This document shows, piece after piece, positions 1,084-14,234 of a DNA stretch of 21,980 bases; position 1 is the first letter of the stretch, and each line of letters opens with the position of its first letter. The translations under genes were made by a program, and so were the position numbers. The notes under the pieces were generated by a model. The model saw nothing but the letters and a program-made list of their open reading frames with translations. It did no database searches and had not been told where the DNA came from. This stretch comes from a virus (Duplodnaviria; Heunggongvirae; Uroviricota; Caudoviricetes), in IMG/VR virus record IMGVR_UViG_2700989365_000011; one strand, written 5' to 3'.

Positions 1084-2912
1084 GCAATCATCACTCCATA
1101 GAAACCAGCGATAGTTCTCTCAATAATCCGTCTGTGGACGCCAGCATCAATTAACGATTGAATCTCCATCACCTGCTCCAGAGAAGGCAACGGGATTGAA
1201 TTCAATTCATAGGCCGAAACAGCAACACTTCCGCTTATACACCTGAACGCCCGATCGACAACATGCGAATTAAGTAGCATATCAATAACATCAGGGCGAA
1301 CCGCAGAGAACAATCCGTTTGAATATACAATATTAATATGGTTTTCAACTACTACGCCACCAGTTTCATCTATAAATCCCTGAGGTAAAATTGCCGCTAA
1401 AATCCTTCTGTCCTGTTCCTTCGATGTTGTCCGCTGAACAAGCACACATTCAGATTTTGTCACAAGGAAACCCTGTTGTGGGGTTATATCGATATAGGGA
1501 ACATGATTTTTTCTGTCTGCACTAAAACGAAAACCAGCTGAAGTTATTGATTCCGCCCAGACTAATGGGTAGCTATTTTTTCCTTTCGTCGTACGCAACT
1601 GCGACTTAAATCGATTCCAGACTAACTGACCTGTAGAGACTGAGTATCCCAGATCAGCTAAACGCGTAGACATCTGTTTTAATACATTAAGAAAACAGGC
1701 ATCATCTTTAACGCGTGGCAAAAGCCACGTTGCTCCACCTTTTTCTATATCAACATTACCTATTTTCTCAATTTTTGCTTTGTTCAACCCCTTAGGGACA
1801 AGTGAGGATACCTGGGCCCGAACTTTATGTTCTCCCGCCTTGAATGCTGTCAACATTGTTTCCTGGAGAACATCGTCAAAGACCCCATCCCTGTCAGTGA
1901 CGAAATCAAGGGCATACGGAGTAGTTTTTTCGGTCAAAAGGGTTCGCAGCGCGGTGAAATACTGCCCACCAAGAAAAGAAGTTGGCGTAAGAAATGCAAT
2001 AACTCCTGTTTTCTCTTTAACCATGCGAACAGCTAAGTCGGTGAACAATCCATATAGATTTGCATGACCAAATAACGAACGAGAATATTTTTCTCTCGTT
2101 TTAATATCGAGAGTGACACGTCCGTAAGGCGGATTCCCTACCACAAGATCATAACCAGAAAATTTATCTTGCTGAAGCGCATCAGCAACAATAATTGTAT
2201 CTTCAGGCAATCTACGTTTTACCTTTACACATAGTGGCATTAGTACAGATTCGAGCAATACCAAACTCATCCAAGCCGCAAATGGATCGATCTCTATCCC
2301 CTTTAAACGACGACTGATTCTCCTCAACATCCATTCAGGGGAAGACCCCTTGTCTTTTTTTAACATTCGAATGGCTACTGGTGCCAAAAATGCACCGCCA
2401 CCACACGCAGGATCAATAACCGATGCATGAGAAAAATCAACACCAGACTTTTCAGCCAGGTCCAAGAGACGCGCTACCAAAGGTGGGGGGGTATAGTAAG
2501 CCCCCAATTCCGAACGGTAAGCGGATGGCAGCATTACCGTATAAATTGACCCAATCAGATATCCAGCGTCCTCCGCCGGAAATTGAGCAATAAGCTCACC
2601 TGTTCGTTCAGCGAGCTCGCGTGCATCACATGGAATGTCTTCTATGTAAACAGTGTGCGGTACTGCCCTCATTTTAATGCTGCTTTTTTGCTTTTTTGCA
2701 AGGGTATCCCAATATGCAGCTACGATGCTGAAGCAGTATGAGCGGGCATGCATCAACCTTGACTGCCCGGTTTTGTAATTGCCCGCATAACCTTTGGCCA
2801 TGGCTTTACAAGTTTGATATCTTTCCAGATTAGAAAACTCATTATCTGTAAAAAAATCAAAATGTTGCACATTCATAATGTAAAATCCTAATGTATCAAA
2901 CATGCGGGCCAT
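1080..2912 (-). CDS. N6-adenine DNA methyltransferase, gamma class
   Basis: 610-aa ORF with AdoMet-binding motif I (DPACGGGAFL) N-terminal to catalytic motif IV (VVGNPPYG). Motif order I then IV is the gamma-class arrangement; the long C-terminal region is consistent with a target-recognition domain. Confidence 0.85.
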   Translation of the reverse strand: MARMFDTLGFYIMNVQHFDFFTDNEFSNLERYQTCKAMAKGYAGNYKTGQSRLMHARSYCFSIVAAYWDTLAKKQKSSIKMRAVPHTVYIEDIPCDARELAERTGELIAQFPAEDAGYLIGSIYTVMLPSAYRSELGAYYTPPPLVARLLDLAEKSGVDFSHASVIDPACGGGAFLAPVAIRMLKKDKGSSPEWMLRRISRRLKGIEIDPFAAWMSLVLLESVLMPLCVKVKRRLPEDTIIVADALQQDKFSGYDLVVGNPPYGRVTLDIKTREKYSRSLFGHANLYGLFTDLAVRMVKEKTGVIAFLTPTSFLGGQYFTALRTLLTEKTTPYALDFVTDRDGVFDDVLQETMLTAFKAGEHKVRAQVSSLVPKGLNKAKIEKIGNVDIEKGGATWLLPRVKDDACFLNVLKQMSTRLADLGYSVSTGQLVWNRFKSQLRTTKGKNSYPLVWAESITSAGFRFSADRKNHVPYIDITPQQGFLVTKSECVLVQRTTSKEQDRRILAAILPQGFIDETGGVVVENHINIVYSNGLFSAVRPDVIDMLLNSHVVDRAFRCISGSVAVSAYELNSIPLPSLEQVMEIQSLIDAGVHRRIIERTIAGFYGVMIA

Positions 2913-3126
2913 AACATCTCATGGTGGCGCATAGCAAACTGGCCCGAAGAATATCACGCACCAAGTCGATCTCATAACCCGTTATGACAATAAATCTTTG
3001 TAGCTGAACTCACTTGGTGATTTGTCAATCATTCCTGGCCTCCAGTTCGTCCTGAATCTCTTTATCGAGTTCACCGTATTTGTTAGTCCTCATCACTCAC
3101 GACTTGACTTCCAGAAATAACCTTGA

Positions 3127-3483
3127 TTATTCGGGGCTATATTTTGTCACCCTGCGTATCCGCGCTTTCGCATTACGCTCAATCTGGATTAGCTTTTCTA
3201 TATTTTTTCGCCTTTCCCGCTCCTCCTGGCGCAAGAGCCTTACATCATCTGCCAGTCTGGTTTCTCTTTTCGCCACAGAGAGCATCCAGTCAAATGGCTC
3301 CACAACTGCACCGCAAATTTTACAGCGGACCTGACGCTCTTTTTCGTCAACCCGTACAGAGGCGTGATGGCAATATGGTCTTTCCGATGGCTCATAAAGA
3401 AAATTAACCTGATTACGAGGGTCATCCTCTTTTACCGGAAATAAAACGATATTGCTTAACTCATCTTCTGGTTTTATTTCCAT
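3127..3483 (-). CDS. Prophage protein of unknown function with Cys/His zinc-ribbon-like motif and basic coiled-coil C-terminus
   Basis: 118 aa from the ATG at 3483 (MEIKPEDEL...), with a GGAG-like Shine-Dalgarno upstream. The six-frame ORF extends to 3540 but that start abuts the upstream stop. Contains CHH...CKIC and an R/E/K-rich tail. No paralog in the Rac copy. Confidence 0.5.
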   Translation of the reverse strand: MEIKPEDELSNIVLFPVKEDDPRNQVNFLYEPSERPYCHHASVRVDEKERQVRCKICGAVVEPFDWMLSVAKRETRLADDVRLLRQEERERRKNIEKLIQIERNAKARIRRVTKYSPE

Positions 3484-3540: not shown

Positions 3541-3963
3541 TCACAGTACCGCCTCCTGAAAATCACCCTGATAGAAAGCCGGTACACGCTGCATAACTTC
3601 ACTCTTCCGGCACTCGCGACAGATTATGTTCTGATGTCTGTCGTAGCGGCGTATTTCTCCGTCCGGTAATGACCAGATAAGGTCCGGATCAACCACAGAT
3701 GGTTTCTTCAGCTTTGCCCTCGAGAGTTTTTTGCGGGCGTTTTGCCAGTCCTTACGCGCCTGTTCAGACGGGAATAACCCGTAGCCAGAGTTGTATACAT
3801 CCCCACTGGCAACCAGCTCTCTGGCGAGAACGCTTATTAAATATCTTGTCGCCCCGGTTTTAGCTTCCAGTTGTCGTAACGTCTCGCGCCCACTCTGGCG
3901 TACGAGTTCAACAACCTGCCCCTTAATTTTTTCCCGCTCTTCCTGTGTAAATACTTTTGCCAT
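3541..3963 (-). CDS. Conserved lambdoid prophage protein, unknown function
   Basis: 140 aa from the ATG at 3963 (MAKVFTQEE...), GGGGG Shine-Dalgarno upstream; the listed ORF start at 3978 is a TTG. Near-identical paralog at 10223-10639 except for the C-terminal ~12 residues. Confidence 0.6.
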   Translation of the reverse strand: MAKVFTQEEREKIKGQVVELVRQSGRETLRQLEAKTGATRYLISVLARELVASGDVYNSGYGLFPSEQARKDWQNARKKLSRAKLKKPSVVDPDLIWSLPDGEIRRYDRHQNIICRECRKSEVMQRVPAFYQGDFQEAVL

Positions 3964-3978
3964 AAGCGCCCCCGGCAA

Positions 3979-4704
3979 TCACTTTTCCGACACAATACGA
4001 CCGGAGGAATCGACAATCTGTCGAACAATATCCCGGTGCTTGTTCAGCTCCCGCAGCGCGGCGCAGACTCGCTCCCACTTCTGGACATGATTTTTCGCCC
4101 GACGCAGTTCGCGGTTTGCCATATGCAGCGATGGTAAAACCAGGTCATCCGCTTGCGTTTCGGTGAACGATGGCAACGACTGCACAATGTCCGCCACAGT
4201 TTCTGTTTTAATTTCTTCCTGTGTTGCAGCTTCCTGTACCGGTAACGCAACACCTGCTGGCTGAGGAAAGACTTTACCATCCGTTTCCGCTATGGATGCG
4301 GCTTTCGGCTCTGCCGGTAAATCAGCGCCCGGTATGCAGTACCGAAATTTACCGCCCTGATTCACGCGAATCAGACGCCCTTTGCTGATTGCCATGGCCA
4401 GCGATGAATTCGCCCGGCGGGAGGTAATCCCGAACATCAGTGCCAGCTCATCCGCCGTTTGTGGGCCATGTTGTTCAATCGCCTCAGTCAGCATTTGCGC
4501 TGTCACTTTCGGTACCGGTGACACTGGTTCACTTTCACCAGCCTGAATCAGCCACCACATCGAACCCTTGTTATCCGCTTCACCACGGCGCTTCAGTTTC
4601 CACAGTTCGTTGACCGCATCTTCACGGCTGATTCCAAGGCGGGACGCCACCACATGTGAAGAGGCTCTTTTCAGTGCTTTCAGTGCGTCAAATACAGTTT
4701 CCAT
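3979..4704 (-). CDS. Prophage protein with winged-helix-like N-terminal region, unknown function
   Basis: 241 aa from the ATG at 4704 (METVFDALK...), GGAGG Shine-Dalgarno upstream. The C-terminal ~115 aa are nearly identical to the paralog at 10655-11416; the N-terminal halves diverge. Confidence 0.6.
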
Positions 4705-4725
4705 TAAAACATCCTCCAACAAAAA

Positions 4726-5472
4726 TTACTTCACAACTCCCGGAAAGCTGACATTTGAACGCCAGCTATCCCAGTTAAACGTCACCCACCGACAACCGTT
4801 CATGGTCATGCGGTCCATAATCCTCTCACCAAGAAGCGTGCTCATTGCGGCATGATTCAGGTTTGTTAACATCCCGACACTGCACAGTGATGCTGTCCGG
4901 CGATCAATTATCTGGTGCAATACCACCTGCTCGTTTTTCGTCTCCCGCTGAATGCCTATTTCATCCAGGACCAGCAAATCAACCCCGCAAAGCTCCTGTA
5001 AAAATTTTTCACCGGATTTGCCGTTGTCGTAGCTGTCATGCAACACGCTCATGACATCAGACTCGGTGACGATAATCACGCTGCGCCCCTTCGCCATCAG
5101 CCGGTTACCCATCGCCGCTGCAAGGTGATTTTTCCCGGTGCCGGTTTTACCGCTGAACACAAAATTCGTGCACCCGGTCATCAGTTCGTCAGCTATGGAT
5201 TTGGCCTGGCTCAGCGCGTATTTTTGCCCGTCGTTCTGCACCTGATAATTCGCAAACGAGCATTTGCTGTGCAGAGGCTGGATGCCCGAACGATTCAGGA
5301 TTTTTTCCACCCGCAACTGGCGATTCTGGCGGTTAATCTCCTCGCTGCGTTTTCGTCCTTCAGCAAGTTGCCATTCCCGCCACTCCTCCACCGTCCGGTA
5401 CGGTGGAACCGCCCCCTGTGGTGCAAGTCTGTGAATACGTTCAAGAACCCCGGCTGCCGCAATGTTTTTCAT
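4726..5472 (-). CDS. DnaC/IstB-like AAA+ replicative helicase loader
   Basis: 248 aa with Walker A (GKTGTGKNHL) and Walker B (LLVLDEIG). Paralog of 11439-12185. Sits immediately downstream of the O-like gene, as lambda P does. Confidence 0.85.
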   Translation of the reverse strand: MKNIAAAGVLERIHRLAPQGAVPPYRTVEEWREWQLAEGRKRSEEINRQNRQLRVEKILNRSGIQPLHSKCSFANYQVQNDGQKYALSQAKSIADELMTGCTNFVFSGKTGTGKNHLAAAMGNRLMAKGRSVIIVTESDVMSVLHDSYDNGKSGEKFLQELCGVDLLVLDEIGIQRETKNEQVVLHQIIDRRTASLCSVGMLTNLNHAAMSTLLGERIMDRMTMNGCRWVTFNWDSWRSNVSFPGVVK

Positions 5473-5478
5473 GCCACA

Positions 5479-6549
5479 TCACCCCCTGAATCCCGGCGGA
5501 ATTTCGGTATCCGGTTCAGAAATATGATTCACACAACGCTGGTTGTTCGTGCCGCTTACCGGGAGCAACCAGGGGTTTTCAAAATTCCGGTCCGGCCCAA
5601 AAAACGTCGTCGCTCGCTGAACAAATTCCGTTCCCGCTTTCCCGGTCGCCGCCAGGTATCTCGCGTAACGCCTCACACCATCCAGCATGGTCTCTGGTGG
5701 CACCCCCTCGCGCAATCTGGCCTTCCAGGCACTGAATGCGGATTTCTTCGGGTTTGCCCCGGCACGCAACGGGTATTCCCGCCAGACCTGTTCGAACACA
5801 TCCGGATAATCCACTCGTCCCACAGGCTGCCCGGTGTTTTCCGGGGCTACCCGATCGGCTTCCCGCTGAATGGCGGAATCGGCTTCAGGCTGCTGCAGTT
5901 GGAGTGATTGCTCCGGCCTTGCGGTCATCACCTGCTGCACAGCGCCCGAATCGGCTTTCAGCGCATACGCTGAATCGGCTTCCGGTGTCGAGCCTGCTGG
6001 CTGACCAGGATTGACGGTCTGAACATCCCCTGCCTGGTTCGTGGCGTTTTTTACGCCATGGACCATAGTGTTTTGATCTTCTTTATCTGTATCTTTATCT
6101 GTATCTGTCGTGACTCGTCGTGACATGTGCGTGACATTTCGTGACGCGCCGTGACAATCGCCATTTTGTTCCCGCTTTCTTTCCCTCTCTCGCTGCGCCC
6201 TCTTGCGCTCTGCAGGAGATTTTGCGGTTTGCGAAATATTGCCGTTGTCCTCTTTAAGCACCTGGCGTTTTTCCCATCCAGTGATTAAATCACCATCAAG
6301 TACCCGCCCCTGCATCGTCTGCAAAATTGAATCAATTACCTCTTCTGTCACGTCGAGCGCACTTGCCAAATCTTCTGTCGTGACATCAATGTGACCTCGC
6401 GTGACATTTCGTGACGCGCTCACCAGGAGGTGGATATACACTGCCATCACTGTTGCAATTGGCTGCCCTGACACCCTGGCAATTGTTCGCCACTTAGGGT
6501 CATTTGGCATGTCATGCCATAATCTGAGCCAGGCGTTAGCCATACTCAC
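5479..6549 (-). CDS. Replication initiator, lambda O-like
   Basis: 356 aa, located between the YdaT-like gene and the DnaC-like loader. Contains internal iteron arrays. Shares only the C-terminal tail (AIPPGFRG) with the Rac YdaU at 12192-13049. Confidence 0.65.
   Translation of the reverse strand: MSMANAWLRLWHDMPNDPKWRTIARVSGQPIATVMAVYIHLLVSASRNVTRGHIDVTTEDLASALDVTEEVIDSILQTMQGRVLDGDLITGWEKRQVLKEDNGNISQTAKSPAERKRAQRERERKREQNGDCHGASRNVTHMSRRVTTDTDKDTDKEDQNTMVHGVKNATNQAGDVQTVNPGQPAGSTPEADSAYALKADSGAVQQVMTARPEQSLQLQQPEADSAIQREADRVAPENTGQPVGRVDYPDVFEQVWREYPLRAGANPKKSAFSAWKARLREGVPPETMLDGVRRYARYLAATGKAGTEFVQRATTFFGPDRNFENPWLLPVSGTNNQRCVNHISEPDTEIPPGFRG
6081..6155. repeat. Iteron array inside the O-like gene (putative replication origin), cluster 1
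   Basis: Tandem 12-bp CTTTATCTGTAT x2 (6081-6104) followed by five ~10-bp units each ending CGTGAC (6105-6155). Confidence 0.5.
6376..6419. repeat. Iteron array inside the O-like gene, cluster 2
   Basis: Four GTGAC-containing ~10-bp units. The 20-mer CGTGACATTTCGTGACGCGC at 6400-6419 is an exact copy of 6130-6149. Confidence 0.45.
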
Positions 6550-6614
6550 CTCTTCTGATACCGAATCTTTTTACTCACGAGTTGCCGGGAGCGATTCGAT
6601 ATGGCTATTGTCAG

Positions 6615-7040
6615 TCAATGTACTGCCACAGCATTTCCTGCCGGGCCACCACGGTTCATCTGATTGAAACCGGCGATTGCCACTGCGACAAAATCATCAG
6701 CGTCTCTCACCAGTCGTTCATGCGTCTCCACCAGTTCCCGAAAATAAGCTGAACTGTGGCTGCGCATTCGAGCCACCAGCGGAGGTGGCATTGCCCTTTC
6801 GATCGCAGGTAACAACGCCTGAATTTTTTCAACAGCGTCAGGGGTGTCTTTATCCAGCCAACGGAAAATCTTTTGGGTGTTGAGATAAAGCGTGTTGTGC
6901 TTGCTGTCGTTATGCAGAACCGGAAACGTCATTCCCAGTTCGAAATAAACCCTGGTTATTTCAGCTGCCGGAACTTTTTCACCGTCCGGATGCGCCCAGG
7001 CTTTCATCGCCATGCGGATGTGTTCATGCTTGATTTTCAT
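6615..7040 (-). CDS. YdaT-like protein (cII-position gene of Rac-type prophages)
   Basis: 141 aa starting MKIKHEHI..., the same N-terminus as the Rac-copy gene at 13062-13484. ATGA overlap with the upstream Cro-like gene. Confidence 0.7.
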   Translation of the reverse strand: MKIKHEHIRMAMKAWAHPDGEKVPAAEITRVYFELGMTFPVLHNDSKHNTLYLNTQKIFRWLDKDTPDAVEKIQALLPAIERAMPPPLVARMRSHSSAYFRELVETHERLVRDADDFVAVAIAGFNQMNRGGPAGNAVAVH

Positions 7041-7300
7041 GAATCAACCCCCGCCGATGGTTGTGTGTTAGCCTGAAACTCAGCAGGCAAGCCGTCAGTT
7101 GGGTTGGGGTAGGTTTTACTGTCAATCTCATGTGGGGTCACCACCCATCCCGTTGCTTCACACCAACGTAATATTTTTTCTCCTGTAAGTTTTGCACGCC
7201 CCGTTATAACGTGGCTGACCATCCCTTGGGATGCGCCAACAATCTCAGCAAATGAACTCTGGGTTATATGAAAATGATGCAAATATTCTCCAAGATTCAT
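7037..7300 (-). CDS. Cro/YdaS-like HTH regulator
   Basis: 87 aa from the ATG at 7300; the listed ORF start at 7327 is a TTG. Divergent from the cI-like repressor across an operator-containing intergenic region. Confidence 0.7.
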   Translation of the reverse strand: MNLGEYLHHFHITQSSFAEIVGASQGMVSHVITGRAKLTGEKILRWCEATGWVVTPHEIDSKTYPNPTDGLPAEFQANTQPSAGVDS

Positions 7301-7336
7301 AATCCGCCCTATGTGATGTGTTACCAATGCATAATT

Positions 7337-7376: not shown

Positions 7377-7411
7377 TCAAAGTGATTAGCAATCTTATTA
7401 GAATTGGATGT

Positions 7412-7912
7412 ATGAAAAGAAAATCATTGTCAGACACCGACCTCAACGCCGCCAGAAGACTGAAAGAAATCTGGATGGCAAAGAAATCTCAGTTGGGATT
7501 GACTCAGGAACGTGCGGCGGAAATTATGGGGTTTTCAACACAAGGGGCGGTAAGTCACTACCTAAATGGTCAAACCCCACTAAACCTTGAGGCTGTTCTA
7601 AAGTTTGCTGGCTTACTGAAAGTTCCCCCTGAGTCAATCAGGCCAGACATGGTAGATTTGCTGCAAATTGCAAGGATGTATTGTCGAGAACCACAGCAAG
7701 ATAACATAGTCGCATTACCAGCAGACACAGAACAAACAGAGGATGAACTACCGTTTGCCGTAGAGCCGATGGAACGAGATTTAATCCATACGTTCAGAGC
7801 TTTTCCGAAAGAAGATCAAGAACACATGCTTCAGGAGATGAAAGATAAAAAAGAATCAATGGATCGTACGGTTGCGCGGTGGTTAGCTGCACAAAAAGGC
7901 CGTCGCGCCTAA
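7412..7912 (+). CDS. cI-like XRE-family HTH repressor without a recognisable C-terminal S24 peptidase domain
   Basis: 166 aa from the ATG at 7412 (MKRKSLSDTDL...); a GTG at 7382 is an alternative start. HTH region LTQERAAEIMGFSTQGAVSHYLNG. Immediately upstream of the toxin-antitoxin pair, as in repressor-antitoxin-toxin operons. Confidence 0.75.
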   Translation: MKRKSLSDTDLNAARRLKEIWMAKKSQLGLTQERAAEIMGFSTQGAVSHYLNGQTPLNLEAVLKFAGLLKVPPESIRPDMVDLLQIARMYCREPQQDNIVALPADTEQTEDELPFAVEPMERDLIHTFRAFPKEDQEHMLQEMKDKKESMDRTVARWLAAQKGRRA

Positions 7913-7931: not shown

Positions 7932-8126
7932 ATGAGTACAGTCCTTTCCCCAATGGTTTCAGAATTTGAGACAGTTGAGCAAGAAAATAGTTACAACGAA
8001 TGGCTGCGGGCCAAAGTAGCAGCAAGCCTCGCGGATCCCCGCCCGGCGATTCCGCATGATGAGGTAATGGCGGAAATGGAACAAATTATTGCCCAAATTG
8101 CTGCTGCAACTCACAGAGGTGAATAA
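7932..8126 (+). CDS. Antitoxin partnering the ParE-family toxin (PaaA/ParD-like)
   Basis: 64 aa, GAGGAG Shine-Dalgarno 8 nt upstream. Its stop overlaps the toxin ATG (TAATG at 8124-8128). Confidence 0.65.
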   Translation: MSTVLSPMVSEFETVEQENSYNEWLRAKVAASLADPRPAIPHDEVMAEMEQIIAQIAAATHRGE

Positions 8127-8416
8127 TGTTACCCGTTTTATGGCTACCATCTGCTCGTGATGATTTGCGCCAGATCGTAGCCTACATAGCTAAAGAAAAT
8201 CCCGCGGCAGCACGCAGAATGAAAATTCGAATTGAAACATCCGTTTTGCCGCTCACAGAGCATCCTTACCTGTATCCTCCAAGCGAGCGAGTTCTTGGTC
8301 TTCGTGAAATTGTAACTCATCCTAACTACATCATCCTTTACCGAGTAACAGCATCAAGCATAGAAGTAGTAAATATTGTGCATTCTCGAAGACAGTATCC
8401 AGGCAAAAACAGTTAA
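8126..8416 (+). CDS. parE: RelE/ParE-family type II toxin
   Basis: 96 aa with the characteristic C-terminal pattern ...IILYRV...IEVVNIVHSRRQ. Translationally coupled to the upstream antitoxin. Confidence 0.8.
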   Translation: MLPVLWLPSARDDLRQIVAYIAKENPAAARRMKIRIETSVLPLTEHPYLYPPSERVLGLREIVTHPNYIILYRVTASSIEVVNIVHSRRQYPGKNS

Positions 8417-9373: not shown

Positions 9374-9877
9374 TTATTGATAGTGTTTTATGTTCAGATA
9401 ATGCCCGATGACTTTGTCATGCAGCTCCACCGATTTTGAGAACGACAGCGACTTCCGTCCCAGCCGTGCCAGGTGCTGCCTCAGATTCAGGTTATGCCGC
9501 TCAATTCGCTGCGTATATCGCTTGCTGATTACGTGCAGCTTTCCCTTCAGGCGGGATTCATACAGCGGCCAGCCATCCGTCATCCATATCACCACGTCAA
9601 AGGGTGACAGCAGGCTCATAAGACGCCCCAGCGTCGCCATAGTGCGTTCACCGAATACGTGCGCAACAACCGTCTTCCGGAGACTGTCATACGCGTAAAA
9701 CAGCCAGCGCTGGCGCGATTTAGCCCCGACATAGCCCCACTGTTCGTCCATTTCCGCGCAGACGATGACGTCACTGCCCGGCTGTATGCGCGAGGTTACC
9801 GACTGCGGCCTGAGTTTTTTAAGTGACGTAAAATCGTGTTGAGGCCAACGCCCATAATGCGTGCAGTTGCCCGGCAT
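9374..9877 (-). CDS. insB: IS1 InsB (transposase frame; InsAB' is made by frameshifting)
   Basis: 167-aa ORF overlapping the 3' end of insA in a different frame. Confidence 0.9.
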
Positions 9878-10071
9878 CCAACGCCATTCATGGCCATATC
9901 AATGATTTTCTGGTGCGTACCGGGTTGAGAAGCGGTGTAAGTGAACTGCAGTTGCCATGTTTTACGGCAGTGAGAGCAGAGATAGCGCTGATGTCCGGCA
10001 GTGCTTTTGCCGTTACGCACCACCCCGTCAGTAGCTGAACAGGAGGGACAGCTGATAGAAACAGAAGCCAC
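9796..10071 (-). CDS. insA: IS1 InsA
   Basis: 91 aa, [40 protein letters not shown]... Confidence 0.95.
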
Positions 10072-10222: not shown

Positions 10223-10639
10223 CTATAAATACCGAAGATTTCCTTGATAAAATGCCAGTACACGTTTCATAACTTCACTCTTCCGGCACTCGCGACAGAT
10301 TATGTTCTGACGCCTGTCATAGCGGCGTATTTCTCCGTCTGGTAATGACCAGATAAGGTCAGGATCAACCACAACCGTTTTTTTCACCTTTGCCCTGGAT
10401 AGTTTTTTGCGGGCGTTTTTCCAATCCTTACGAGCCTGTTCAGACGGGAATAACCCATAGCCAGAGTTGTATACATCGCCACTGGCAACCAACTCTCTGG
10501 CAAGAATGCTCATCAGATATCTTGTCGCACCTGTCTTGGCCTCCAGTTGCCTTAACGTCTCGCGCCCACTCTGGCGTACCAACTCAACAACCTGCTCCTT
10601 AATTTTTTCACGCTCTTCCTGTGTAAAAACTTTTGCCAT
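10223..10639 (-). CDS. Conserved lambdoid prophage protein, paralog of 3541-3963
   Basis: 138 aa from the ATG at 10639, GGAGG Shine-Dalgarno upstream. The C-terminus differs from the left-prophage copy. Confidence 0.6.
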   Translation of the reverse strand: MAKVFTQEEREKIKEQVVELVRQSGRETLRQLEAKTGATRYLMSILARELVASGDVYNSGYGLFPSEQARKDWKNARKKLSRAKVKKTVVVDPDLIWSLPDGEIRRYDRRQNIICRECRKSEVMKRVLAFYQGNLRYL

Positions 10640-10654
10640 AAGCGCCTCCGGCAA

Positions 10655-11416
10655 TCACTTTTCCGACACAATACGACTGGAGGAATCGACAATCTGTCGG
10701 ACAATATCCCGGTGCTTGTTCAGCTCCCGCAGCGCGGCGCAGACTCGCTCCCACTTCTGGACATGATTTTTCGCCCGACGCAGTTCGCGGTTTGCCATAT
10801 GCAGCGATGGTAAAACTAGGTCATCCGCTTGCGTTTCAGTAAACGATGGCAGCGACTGCACAATGTCCGCCACAGTTTCTGTTTTAATATCTTCCTGTGT
10901 TGCCGCTTCCTGTACTGGTAACGCAACACCGGCTGGCTGAGGAAAGGCTTTACCATCAGTTTCCGCTACCGATGCAGCTTTCGGCTCTGCTGGTAAATTA
11001 TCGCCCGGCATGCAGTAACGAAATTTACTGTTCTGGTTTACGCGAATCAGGCGTCCTTTGCTGATTGCCATTGCCAGCGTTGAAGCAACTTTGCGGGATG
11101 TTGTACCGAACAGCGTAGCCAGTTCATCCGCCGTTTGTGGTCCGCGTTGTTCAATCGTCGCGGTTAAATCGCACTCTGAGATTTTCACTACAGTTGCCGT
11201 GGTGGTTTCTTCCGGCAGTTCTGCCTGCATTGGCTGTTCCTGCTGAACGTTGTTATCAGCCACACGCCAGGTGTACGCGCTTTTATCAACGAAACCAGCT
11301 TTTTTCAGTTCCCATAGTTCGTTCAGCACTTCTTCACGACTGATATCAAGTCGCGCAGCAAGTTCTATGGATGTGGCTTTTCCCATTGCTTTCAGTGCGT
11401 CAAAAACAGTCTCCAT
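10655..11416 (-). CDS. Prophage protein with winged-helix-like N-terminus, paralog of 3979-4704 (ydaW position of Rac)
   Basis: 253 aa from the ATG at 11416 ([13 protein letters not shown]...), GGAGG Shine-Dalgarno upstream. Confidence 0.6.
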
Positions 11417-11438
11417 AAAAATTTCCTCCCGGTAAAAA

Positions 11439-12185
11439 TTACTTCTCAATTCCTGGCTGGACGACATTCGGACGCCAGCTCTCCCAGTTAAAATTCACCC
11501 ATCGCCCGCCGTTCATGGTCATGCGATCCATAATCCGCTCGCCGAGCAATGTTTTCATGGCCTCATAGTTCAGGTTTGTCAGCATCCCCACGCTGCGCAT
11601 CGACGCTGTCCGGCGATCAACAATCTGGTGCAGCACCACCTGCTCGTTTTTCGTCTCGCGCTGAATGCCAATTTCATCAAGAACCAGCAGATCCACTTCG
11701 CATAGTTCCCGCAAAAATTTTTCGCCTGACTGCCCATCGTCATAGCTGGCGTGCAGGGCACTCATAACATCAGCCACGGTAACCACAATCACTGTCTGAC
11801 CGTCTTTCAGCAGGCGATTCCCGATAGCTGCCGCTAAGTGATTCTTCCCGGTACCAGGTTTTCCGCTGAACGCAAAATTTGTACACCCGGTCATCAGTTC
11901 ATCAGCGATGGATTTCGCCTGACTCAACGCGTATCGCTGCGCTTCGTTCTGCACCTGGTAATTCGAAAACGAGCATTTGCGGTGCAATGGCTGGATGCCA
12001 GAGCGATTCAGAATTTTTTCCACCCGCAACTGACGATTCTGACGGTTGATCTCCTCACAACGTTTCTGGCCTTCGGAAAGTTGCCACTCGCGCCACTCCG
12101 CTACCGTCTTGAATGGCGCGGTTACATGTGACGGGGCCAGTCTGCGGATACGTTCAAGAACGTCGCCTGTCGCAATATTTTTCAT
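11439..12185 (-). CDS. ydaV: DnaC-like AAA+ helicase loader
   Basis: 248 aa with Walker A ([10 protein letters not shown]) and Walker B (LLVLDEIG). Symbol assigned from position and length in a Rac-type gene order. Confidence 0.75.
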
Positions 12186-12191
12186 GGTCAG

Positions 12192-13049
12192 TTACCCCCT
12201 GAAGCCTGGCGGGATCGCACTATCCGGTAACGAGACGGTGTTAACCTGTCGGAGTAACGTCTCAGGTCGAACACCTTTCGGCGCGAACAAGCCCTGGTAT
12301 TCATTGGCGATGCTGTGTCGAATCACCTGCTCAGGTGTAAAACCCTGCTGACGGAATTTTTCCAGTTCCCGTATCGCCCCGTTAGCGCCCTGCTCCGTTC
12401 GAATCGGTTTTCGCAATGCCTGGCGAAATTCAACCCACTCACGCCAAAGCGAGACAGAAATCCAGTTCGGCAAAGCAATATCCAGAGGGTCAAACTTTTT
12501 GACACCTCGATTCCCCCGGGGGGGATTTAGGGGGGGATCTGTTTTTAGATCTTTATCTGTATCTTTATTAGTTGCCTTTGTGTTGACATCATGTTCAAAC
12601 ACCACTTCAACATCTGTTTGAACACCTGTTAAATTTCTCTCTTGTTTTGTTTGAACATCTGCTTCCTTTCTGCTTCTTCTGGCCTGAACAGATGCTTTTC
12701 CTGCGGCTGATTTTTTGGTTAATTTTTCCCTGACTGATGCCAGATCTTCCTCAATCCGAAGATGCACCCATTCCTCGCCGTTATCGCAAAAAAACTCCTG
12801 CAAGGATGGTTCAACATCAGCCCATCGCTCGTTAGTCAGACGGGCAATTTTTGCCAGCCTGTTTTTAGGTATTGGCTTTCCTGTTTGCCAGTAATTGAAC
12901 ATCAGCAACAAATACGCACCATGCTCCTCTGCTGACAAATGCATGGTGTCAGCCAGGTAATCAGCTATGTACAGTTGCATGTATGGTAATGCGGCCATAA
13001 TTGCCCCGTATGATGCTGCCCGGTGGCTTAGAATAAGCACAAACAGCAT
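12192..13049 (-). CDS. ydaU: Replication initiator, O-like (DUF1376-type N-terminus)
   Basis: 285 aa, MAALPYMQLYIADYLADTMHLSAEEHGAYLLLMFNYWQTGK... Internal iterons present. Symbol assigned from position and length. Confidence 0.7.
   Translation of the reverse strand: MLFVLILSHRAASYGAIMAALPYMQLYIADYLADTMHLSAEEHGAYLLLMFNYWQTGKPIPKNRLAKIARLTNERWADVEPSLQEFFCDNGEEWVHLRIEEDLASVREKLTKKSAAGKASVQARRSRKEADVQTKQERNLTGVQTDVEVVFEHDVNTKATNKDTDKDLKTDPPLNPPRGNRGVKKFDPLDIALPNWISVSLWREWVEFRQALRKPIRTEQGANGAIRELEKFRQQGFTPEQVIRHSIANEYQGLFAPKGVRPETLLRQVNTVSLPDSAIPPGFRG
12513..12657. repeat. Iteron-like repeats inside ydaU (putative Rac origin)
   Basis: CCCCCGGGGGGG G-tract pair (12513-12537), a CTTTATCTGTATCTTTAT block like that of the left prophage, and three copies of a 10-mer in alternating orientation: TGTTCAAACA (12592-12601), TGTTTGAACA (12615-12624, 12648-12657). 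Confidence 0.45.
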
Positions 13050-13061
13050 GGAAACTTTTGC

Positions 13062-13484
13062 TTAATGAACAATGACAGAATCGTCGGAAGACCCGCCGCC
13101 GCTGAAATGCGCTTTCCGGTAAACGGCTTGGACTGCATCATCATGCGCATCAATTGCCGTACTTAACGCTTCCTGCGCCGCCAGTAATGCACGGCGTTCC
13201 AGGGTATCGAAGATGCAGAGTCGGTGACGCAGCTCGCGCGGAAGGATTGCCAGAATTGCTGGGATCAGCTTCTGAATTTTTTCTCTTTGCGTTTTCGTTT
13301 CACCTTTCAACCAACGGTGATAGATATTCTGCTGATTATTCCAGTCCTTGCCTGGTACCAGGGGCAATTCGCCGCCCCCCTGGCGCAGATATTCTTCAGT
13401 AATGGCATTGGCTACCCATGCCTGCCCTTTTTCGGCTGCCAGGGCTAACAACACTGACTCGATGTGCTCATGCTTGATTTTCAT
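13062..13484 (-). CDS. ydaT: YdaT-like protein
   Basis: 140 aa starting MKIKHEHI...; ATGA overlap with the upstream gene. Symbol assigned by synteny. Confidence 0.65.
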   Translation of the reverse strand: MKIKHEHIESVLLALAAEKGQAWVANAITEEYLRQGGGELPLVPGKDWNNQQNIYHRWLKGETKTQREKIQKLIPAILAILPRELRHRLCIFDTLERRALLAAQEALSTAIDAHDDAVQAVYRKAHFSGGGSSDDSVIVH

Positions 13485-13735
13485 GAATCAACTCCCATCA
13501 GCTTTTTCGTAGTAGTTTTATTTCTGCCAATAGTTAAAATTACATCAGCAGAAAATAATCCGTTTGATGCATGAGCGATTTTTTCAGCGTAATTTGTTTC
13601 GCCGGTATATTCTGTGCGAGGCAATTTTCCGTTATCCATCCATTTGTAGATTGCTCTTTGGCTGACACCACAAACGTCGGCCACAACAGAAACGCGAACA
13701 GTTTTGATTACATCTTCAAGTGTTTTCTGGTTCAT
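13481..13735 (-). CDS. ydaS: Cro/YdaS-like regulator
   Basis: 84 aa from the ATG at 13735 (MNQKTLEDV...). The longer listed ORF begins at 13807 and would overlap racR. Symbol assigned by synteny; start uncertain. Confidence 0.55.
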   Translation of the reverse strand: MNQKTLEDVIKTVRVSVVADVCGVSQRAIYKWMDNGKLPRTEYTGETNYAEKIAHASNGLFSADVILTIGRNKTTTKKLMGVDS

Positions 13736-13759
13736 ATCACCCTCACAATGTGAACTTTG

Positions 13760-13790
13760 AGTACATGCTATAACAGAACTGACAGTACAT
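13760..13790. promoter_or_regulatory. Candidate RacR operator half-sites in the ydaS-racR intergenic region
   Basis: AGTACAT at 13760-13766 and 13784-13790 (24-bp spacing); the same heptamer recurs downstream of racR. Confidence 0.35.
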
Positions 13791-13796
13791 TCAAGA

Positions 13797-14234
13797 GTGA
13801 ATATCATTGAACTTATGGTTCATGAAGATAAAGCGCGTAAAGAGTTCGCCAGTAGGCTTGCGCTAGCCTGTGAAAACGCTGGTTATGAACAACATGGAAG
13901 GCAGGCAGAAATTGCCCGTCGAATGAAATTAACACCAAAAGCGGTTAGCAAATGGTTTAATGGCGAAACAATTCCTCGCCGAGAGAAATTAAGGGAATTA
14001 GCAACACTCATTGGAACAACACCAACCTATCTTTTGGGAGAGGATACAGAAGAAAGTGGACAGGTACGTTTCTATCAGGAGTTAAATCCAAGACAAAAAA
14101 TCATCATTGACCTTCTGGACGAGCTCCCTGACAGTGAGACAGATGAACTTTTAAAAACTCTTGAGGAGAAAAAACAGAAGTACAATGCAATTTACGAAGA
14201 GCTAGCACGAAAGAAAAAACAAAAAGCCTCTTAA
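13797..14234 (+). CDS. racR: XRE-family HTH repressor (Rac repressor position)
   Basis: 145 aa from the GTG at 13797, or 139 aa from the ATG at 13815. HTH region GRQAEIARRMKLTPKAVSKWFNG. No S24 peptidase domain. Symbol assigned by synteny with ydaG/ydaF/sieB. Confidence 0.65.
   Translation: MNIIELMVHEDKARKEFASRLALACENAGYEQHGRQAEIARRMKLTPKAVSKWFNGETIPRREKLRELATLIGTTPTYLLGEDTEESGQVRFYQELNPRQKIIIDLLDELPDSETDELLKTLEEKKQKYNAIYEELARKKKQKAS

Follow-up and report, generated by a model that had tools for sequence, protein, structure and literature searches.

A probable replication origin built from two phased iteron arrays inside the initiator gene of a lambdoid Escherichia coli prophage

RESULTS

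Two iteron arrays and an AT-rich stretch lie within the initiator gene

The stretch of viral DNA analyzed here (21,980 nucleotides [nt] of IMG/VR record IMGVR_UViG_2700989365_000011, Caudoviricetes; referred to as the window) carries a replication initiator gene on its minus strand (positions 5479 to 6543) that contains short, regularly spaced repeats. Judged from sequence, positions 6060 to 6415 are probably the vegetative replication origin of a lambdoid E. coli prophage with a Rac-like layout, placed in the 5′ half of the gene that encodes its initiator. The gene encodes 354 amino acids (aa) from an ATG at 6543, which is preceded by GAGGTG; the start assigned by the open reading frame tool was a GTG at 6549.

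A preliminary description of the window had pointed to nine GTGAC units in two clusters about 270 bp apart. These units are indeed present, with plus-strand starts at 6110, 6120, 6131, 6141, and 6151 and at 6380, 6391, 6401, and 6411; the spacing is 10 to 11 bp within the clusters, and the clusters are offset by 270 bp. Nine copies within a 320-bp span exceed anything obtained in 300 dinucleotide-preserving shuffles of the window (mean maximum, 2.6; largest, 6). Since the initiator gene lies on the minus strand, the motif reads GTCAC(G) in gene orientation. Nine of the 11 CGTGAC sites of the window fall within 6109 to 6415, one of them inverted. Array A (6379 to 6415, minus strand) consists of four coding-strand cores, three GTCACG and one GTCACA, spaced by 10, 10, and 11 bp, and array B (6109 to 6155, minus strand) comprises five GTCACG cores spaced by 10, 10, 11, and 10 bp. 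Between them lies the inverted core (6347 to 6352, GTCACG on the plus strand and CGTGAC on the coding strand), which encodes D-V-T at aa 64 to 66. In coding-strand order, the locus thus runs from array A (6415 to 6379) over the inverted core and array B (6155 to 6109) into an AT-rich stretch (6108 to 6060). DnaA boxes (TTATNCACA, one mismatch allowed) were not enriched in the window, and none was found within 6040 to 6420. Array B is likely the core initiator-binding site of the predicted origin.

Two units of array B are shared exactly with array A. The 20-bp repeat recorded earlier (6130 to 6149 and 6400 to 6419) is exact and even extends to 21 bp (6129 to 6149 and 6399 to 6419). The codons of array A form a surface loop (aa 43 to 56, SASRNVTRGHIDVT) of the predicted winged-helix domain, those of array B belong to a disordered linker (aa about 130 to 145, CHGASRNVTHMSRRVT), and the array-A peptide reappears in the linker by way of array B. 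It is the minus strand that encodes the peptides noted before, namely, DTDKDTDK and two copies of ASRNVT. The earlier statement that the repeats stay in frame is correct only from one array to the other, where the offset is 270 bp; inside each array, the spacing of 10 to 11 bp shifts the frame from one core to the next.

The AT-rich stretch (6060 to 6108, minus strand), for which the preliminary description had suggested a search, abuts array B: it begins 2 nt past the last array-B core, has a purine-rich coding strand, and represents a candidate DNA-unwinding element. Its GC content of 0.325 to 0.38 is the minimum of the region from 5400 to 6700, and the DNA around the stretch lies at about 0.55 to 0.6. 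The tandem 12-bp repeat reported previously (CTTTATCTGTAT, twice) is present at 6081 to 6092 and 6093 to 6104. It had been counted among the iterons; it is not a separate iteron but a part of this stretch (6081 to 6104), where the coding strand reads ATACAGATAAAG twice and yields DTDKDTDK.

The initiator is a predicted DnaD-like replisome organizer encoded in a lambdoid early operon

The gene order corresponds to a lambdoid early-right operon: a cro-like helix-turn-helix (HTH) gene (7037 to 7327), a cII/YdaT-like gene (6615 to 7040), the initiator gene, and a DnaC-like helicase loader gene (4726 to 5472; PF01695 IstB_IS21, E value of 3e-19; phrog_50 "DnaC-like helicase loader," E value of 2e-79), all on the minus strand, followed by DUF1627 and DUF977. 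A cI-like repressor gene (7382 to 7912, plus strand) is divergent. Seven phage records, including those of the isolated phages Tritos and Evi, carry the initiator gene at 97% DNA identity, and one cluster of the initiator at 90% identity already comprises 5,786 E. coli and Shigella sequences.

The protein is named "phage replisome organizer" by NCBI and matches phrog_3729 ("replication initiation protein") with an E value of 3e-250. It gave no Pfam match at an E value of ≤0.01, and at ≤10 only the weak matches HTH_Crp_2, Phage_rep_org_N, and PhyR_sigma2 were obtained. Neither the lambda O domain nor the RepA_N domain (PF06970) was detected at this threshold among all Pfam families. The gene had been called O-like, which is appropriate with regard to its position and role but not to homology with lambda O, and a relationship to lambda O was therefore discarded. 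Two models aligned end to end with the N terminus below their thresholds, namely TIGR01714 (15.4 bits versus a cutoff of 49.8; aa 5 to 125 on model positions 1 to 119) and PF09681 (Phage_rep_org_N; 12.8 bits versus a cutoff of 23.3). A profile of the N-domain yielded no relevant match against the sequences of solved structures.

AlphaFold modeling predicted with confidence a DnaD-like winged-helix N-domain (aa 1 to 95), composed of helices at 2 to 14, 16 to 25, and 29 to 45, a loop at 46 to 55, helices at 56 to 63 and 67 to 77, and a beta wing. The array-A loop sits between helices 29 to 45 and 56 to 63 and is modeled with lower confidence (predicted local distance difference test [pLDDT] of about 70). 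A basic helix (aa 110 to 126), the disordered linker (aa 128 to 241), and a helical C-domain (aa 245 to 330) follow, and the protein ends in IPPGFRG. The N-domain model was a structural match to the N-terminal domain of DnaD. According to the model, the initiator is a DnaD-like winged-helix replisome organizer with a predicted fold in common with DnaD and RepA_N.

At the C terminus, only the last 24 residues matched DnaT (NF002770; 18 bits versus 201). Relatives with the same N-domain carry the DnaT DNA-binding domain PF17948 in their C-terminal half (E value of 1e-16 in locus L001; many others). The DnaC-like loader is the likely partner recruited by the initiator C-domain. N- and C-domains shuffle freely at the linker among the relatives (P0040, P0110, and P0054). 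An identical tail, (E/A)IPPGFRG, also ends both initiators of the window (5479 to 5500 and 12192 to 12215) despite their unrelated N-domains.

The two-array layout is conserved across proteobacterial homologues

A tblastn search with the first 159 residues identified homologues at about 70% identity in Aeromonas phage pAEv1818 and Pseudomonas phages. At gene coordinates that match those of the window, these genes carry GTCAC at +129, +139, +149, and +160, an inverted copy, and three or four further copies near +390, after which the arrays run into an AT-rich tract coding for Lys, Asp, and Glu. An initial scan of viral contigs returned only prophages of about 98% identity, and the diversity came from a scan of species-dereplicated genomes, which provided 80 loci of 34 to 98% identity from gamma-, beta-, and alphaproteobacteria and a few other groups. 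In an unsupervised scan, we determined for the 5′ half of each gene the hexamer with the most successive copies 9 to 12 bp apart. At least three phased pairs of one hexamer were present in 57 of 81 gene 5′ halves, compared to none of the 155 control segments of equal length (79 upstream and 76 downstream). The arrays are located at about +120 to +165 and +340 to +430 in nearly every case, and about 60 species-level homologues share the layout.

The AT-rich stretch is part of this layout. In all 60 scorable loci, the 45 nt that follow the final array-B core have a higher AT content than the gene (mean GC content of 0.357 versus 0.558), and 73% of their coding-strand nucleotides are purines. Among 98%-identical prophages the length of the stretch differs by 6-bp steps, a pattern that would fit an unwinding region prone to slippage. 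Hexamer repeats of GAT-AAA and GAT-ACA are frequent in these stretches (9.7 per kb versus 0.04 per kb in the flanks), and the 12-bp tandem repeat of the window belongs to them. We had considered GATAAAGA as a frame-independent conserved DNA motif of the stretch; this was withdrawn, since 146 of 148 occurrences are in the Asp-Lys frame. For the same reason, DNA-level and protein-level causes of the exact GAT-AAA motif are inseparable.

Absence of the repeats from near-identical homologues had been named as an observation that would speak against an origin. Of the 29 distinct variants represented among 80 near-identical E. coli prophages, nearly all keep the repeats, and changes in the ten cores are rare. 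In the complete 46-kb genome of Tritos, the sole GTCAC cluster is the one in the organizer gene (nine copies; the next best cluster has three). The organizer gene of Tritos (L169, 32105 to 33638) is followed by a gene for a 140-aa hypothetical protein instead of an annotated DnaC-like loader, and the initiator may for this reason need no loader other than that of the host. The close relatives L086 (Escherichia albertii), P0005, and P0024 have additional iterons in one of the arrays, A or B, which appear as loop or linker insertions of 7 to 20 residues, e.g., VTTCHGVSRRGH. The organizer homologue of Pseudomonas phage phi1 (L002, about 2501 to 3400) lacks a coding sequence annotation, and only a short "hypothetical protein" overlaps its start; several related Pseudomonas phage records likewise leave the homologue unannotated.

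The cores are constrained at the DNA level

Codon usage was analyzed for 22 species-level homologues with 59 to 74% protein identity that align without gaps over codons 1 to 100 and span Aeromonas, Pseudomonas, Bordetella, Serratia, and others. The synonymous codon entropy was 0.28 bits for array-A codons versus 1.53 bits for other conserved codons (Mann-Whitney test, P = 8.5e-6). All 22 homologues use GTC for Val47, ACG for Thr48, GGT for Gly50, CAC for His51, GTC for Val54, and ACG for Thr55, and 21 of them use TCA for Ser44. The inverted copy occurs at the matching gene position in many homologues, and the Val65 codon at this core is GTG in all 20 homologues with Val there. The rare codons TCA and CGA are kept in the Pseudomonas cores, and the hosts differ widely in GC content. 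Array B was found in 23 of 23 GTCACG-type homologues, with a consensus of the bare 6-bp GTCACG and weak flanks. Its cores are read in all three frames (31, 29, and 24 times in the 23 homologues), and a peptide repeat can thus not account for them. These codon patterns indicate that purifying selection acts on the cores at the DNA level, beyond that on the protein.

The core sequence covaries with the initiator N-domain

The homologues fall into core classes, and the more distant ones retain the layout with cores other than GTCACG. GTCACG is used in Escherichia, Aeromonas, Pseudomonas, Bordetella, Serratia, and others, and a GTAACG class displays the same two-array layout. CGAACG/GAACGC occurs in many betaproteobacteria and a Manatee Spring podovirus, GCAACG in Ralstonia phage Firinga, Cupriavidus, and Burkholderia, and GTGACG in Paraburkholderia and Caballeronia. 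One core is common to both arrays of a genome in 53 of the 60 scorable loci. Similarity of the N-domain outside the array-encoded loop was 0.667 within core classes and 0.532 between them, a difference reached by none of 1,000 permutations. A search for specificity-determining residues outside the loop gave no convincing basic or polar candidates, and the best columns partly overlapped the inverted site. The most stringent control is a natural domain swap, P0040, which combines the same C-domain with an unrelated N-domain. Its gene contains no GTCAC at all; instead, GAAGGGGCTT cores are found twice and then three times at 11-bp spacing, 256 bp apart, with an AT-rich run after them. The initiator gene is the only one that all these loci have in common; the neighbor genes vary (DnaC-like loader, DnaB helicase, or "replication protein P"), which leaves the N-domain as the sole constant partner of the repeats.

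A second replication module and other features of the window

The window contains two Rac-like replication modules in tandem orientation on the minus strand, at 3541 to 7327 and at 10223 to 13807. The second module comprises DUF977 (10223 to 10654), DUF1627 (10655 to 11467), a DnaC-like gene (11439 to 12185), a DUF1376/YdaU-like initiator gene (12192 to 13049), YdaT (13062 to 13484), and an HTH gene (13481 to 13807). SieB, RecE, RecT, and integrase come after it, and for this reason it looks like Rac itself. The YdaU-like gene also has repeats (12540 to 12906): TTSAACAYC occurs five times, at 12606, 12618, 12651, 12810, and 12895, with an inverted copy at 12591 to 12601. Five of the six TTSAACAYC sites of the window lie in this gene, where 1.3 would be expected by chance, and an AT-rich AAAGATACAGATAAAGATCTAAAAACAGAT stretch (about 12540 to 12570) adjoins them. 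These repeats show the same in-gene design in an initiator of unrelated sequence and may represent Rac oriJ. A mapped position of oriJ was not found in the literature searched, outside of which most subscription-journal papers fall.

Just beyond the cI-like repressor gene, genes for a PaaA2-type antitoxin (7932 to 8126) and a ParE toxin (8126 to 8416) are located on the plus strand. An IS1 transposase gene (9374 to 10071, minus strand; PF03400) lies between the replication modules, possibly where two prophage segments join. Two minus-strand genes are located at the left end of the prophage segment: a BsuBI/PstI-type restriction endonuclease gene that runs off the window end (1 to 1083) and an Eco57I/N6-adenine methylase-like gene (1080 to 2912).

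DISCUSSION

The preliminary description had proposed the iteron arrays as a likely origin of replication. Codon selection, the conserved layout, covariation with the N-domain, and the AT-rich neighbor all support this proposal. The locus shows the hallmarks of an iteron-type theta origin, namely, at least three direct repeats in helical phase (nine direct cores here) next to an AT-rich element, an initiator encoded in cis, and repeats that covary with this initiator. From the anatomy, the DNA-level selection, the family-wide conservation, the N-domain covariation, and the fold, which are directly supported, we infer initiator binding, melting, helicase loading, and a role of array A as follows. 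Upon induction, the early rightward operon (cro, cII/YdaT-like, initiator, and DnaC-like genes) would be transcribed, and this transcription would pass through the origin, as it does in lambda. The N-terminal DnaD-like winged-helix domain would bind the 6-bp GTCACG cores, and their spacing of one helical turn would align four or five protomers on one DNA face per array. The initiator oligomerized on array B would then melt the abutting, strand-asymmetric 45-bp AT-rich stretch (6060 to 6108), and the C-domain (DnaT-like in relatives, with the conserved PPGFRG tail) would recruit both the DnaC-like loader and host DnaB to the melted DNA. Array A, 270 bp upstream, and the inverted core most likely work together with array B in an O-some-like complex in which about 260 bp of DNA is looped or wrapped; array A would act as an enhancer or regulator of firing. 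Placement of the cis elements in tolerant segments, a surface loop and a disordered linker, would explain the internal peptide repeats.

Several points weigh against an origin at this position that is read by the N-domain. The predicted recognition helix (aa 67 to 77, TEEVIDSILQT) has an acidic character that is not typical of helices that read DNA. The N-terminal domain of DnaD itself is mainly an oligomerization scaffold. About 24 of the 81 homologues have fewer than three phased pairs in the simple hexamer scan, some of them being truncated loci or having degenerate cores, and part of the covariation between iteron type and N-domain similarity reflects phylogenetic inertia. No AT-rich stretch adjoins array A, which makes the role of this array in initiation uncertain. 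Finally, no binding, melting, or replication data for this initiator family were found in the literature searched.

The lack of an AT-rich neighbor at array A would also fit a different view of the repeats, in which the arrays are initiator sites mainly for control, either by an autoregulatory block of transcription of the initiator gene and the loader gene downstream of it or by handcuffing of A and B to limit firing, while replication starts elsewhere. Both arrays are inside a transcribed gene, two arrays plus an inverted copy would suit looping, and the iterons of iteron plasmids serve control as well as initiation. We nevertheless consider this explanation improbable: a pure roadblock would not need the AT-rich stretch that abuts array B in every scorable locus, the complete Tritos genome offers no other motif cluster able to serve as an origin, and in the experimentally studied in-gene analogues the repeats together with an AT-rich stretch always constitute the origin (PMC7466680, PMC5737612, and PMC5703833). 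Control and initiation are compatible with each other, and a control function is most plausible for array A alone.

The acidic helix could also mean that something other than the N-domain binds the repeats, such as a host protein, the cII/YdaT-like protein, or the initiator C-domain. To this we assign a very low probability, as iteron type follows the N-domain while C-domains and neighbor genes shuffle, several loci lack a YdaT-like gene, and the layout is constant across alpha-, beta-, and gammaproteobacterial hosts, where a single host factor would not explain at least five core types. Least credible of all is the view that the repeats are by-products of a protein repeat or low-complexity linker (ASRNVT and DTDK) that are kept for the sake of the protein, with no role as DNA. 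The in-frame 270-bp offset does produce repeated peptides, and GAT-AAA keeps to the Asp-Lys frame; however, the period of 10 to 11 bp distributes the cores over all frames, their synonymous positions, including rare TCA and CGA, are near invariant across hosts of very different GC content, and the segments that they encode are a low-confidence loop and a disordered linker rather than folded repeats. An initiator-bound origin at 6060 to 6415 stands as the probable explanation.

Origins made of iterons and an AT-rich element within initiator genes are a known kind, with experimentally supported precedents in lambda, SPP1, pSK41, and Tuc2009. By sequence, the window protein falls into none of the initiator families of these precedents. 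Distinctive features of the present family are the conserved two-array form, the 6-bp cores at one-turn spacing, and the position of the first array within the codons of the predicted DNA-binding domain itself. The literature searched contained no account of an origin in this proteobacterial family; most subscription-journal papers lie outside that literature, and a prior description is possible. In lambda, as here, iterons and an AT-rich tract downstream of them are found in the middle of the initiator gene, which takes the corresponding place in the operon (cro, cII, O, P). Lambda ori consists of one mid-gene array of four 19-bp iterons, whereas the present locus has two arrays of 6-bp cores with a period of 10 to 11 bp, 270 bp apart, plus an inverted copy, and the partner in the window is an IstB/DnaC-like AAA+ protein instead of lambda P. 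Extra iterons lengthen lambda-type O, as in Stx-phage variants with six iterons, where two extra iterons add 13 residues (PMC7466680); in the present family they lengthen the loop or linker in the same manner.

In SPP1, oriL lies inside gene 38 and combines AB boxes bound by the organizer G38P with an AT-rich unwinding element; the organizer recruits helicase loader and helicase, and oriL replication has been reconstituted in vitro (PMC5737612 and PMC6316719). G38P and the window protein share the name "replisome organizer," but the repeat form differs, and SPP1 has a second origin, oriR, elsewhere, while Tritos has one cluster only. In pSK41 and other RepA_N plasmids, a DnaD-like N-domain recognizes Rep boxes located where the ori encodes a dispensable linker, and N-domain and ori are exchanged as a module (PMC5703833). 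These are plasmids of Gram-positive bacteria; in the case of pSK41 Rep, the four Rep boxes form one central set, and the codons of the DNA-binding domain contain no array. The window protein, unlike RepA_N initiators, is without PF06970. The rep gene (orf16) of Lactococcus phage Tuc2009, annotated as "contains origin of replication," has mid-gene CAACCA cores at 11-bp spacing (L168, 7432 to 7475), followed by a purine-rich short-period repeat (7487 to 7538), an arrangement equal to that of array B with its AT-rich neighbor. The 5′ part of this rep gene yielded no second array, and the C-domain of Tuc2009 Rep is PF06926. Homology of the N-domain to SPP1 G38P (hhalign probability of 0.1), to Tuc2009 Rep, and to the YdaU-like protein of the window was considered and rejected (hhalign probabilities of 0.1 to 1.5% for the three comparisons). 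A two-part origin that works by looping has a precedent in satellite phage P4, whose initiator binds short repeats in two separate clusters, ori and crr, each of which is required in cis. About 4.5 kb separates the P4 clusters, which lie outside the codons of the initiator's DNA-binding domain, and the initiator is an unrelated primase-helicase.

It is conceivable, though we rate it as unlikely, that the two-array layout is a functional unit without a described counterpart, in which site and specificity are coupled and pairing of A and B over a loop of about 260 bp is required for firing or copy control. Array A lies in loop codons of the domain predicted to read the iterons, and a change of iteron therefore also alters the reader protein. 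If the array-A loop contacts DNA or sets protomer packing, a single stretch of DNA would physically link the binding site to its specificity. Such a link, if true, would open an inherent path to new origin types that are compatible with one another; at least five core types have been seen.

The origin proposed here introduces no new principle of replication. Its initiator is very common in E. coli and Shigella and has relatives across the Proteobacteria, and the origin location together with the specificity classes would allow origins to be annotated in thousands of prophages. The classes would also permit prediction of which coresident prophages compete for or ignore each other's initiators, and the compact origin-initiator cassettes could be used for vectors or for defense by origin titration. 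More broadly, the locus would be a clear-cut example of mutual constraint between a DNA element and a protein that share the same nucleotides.

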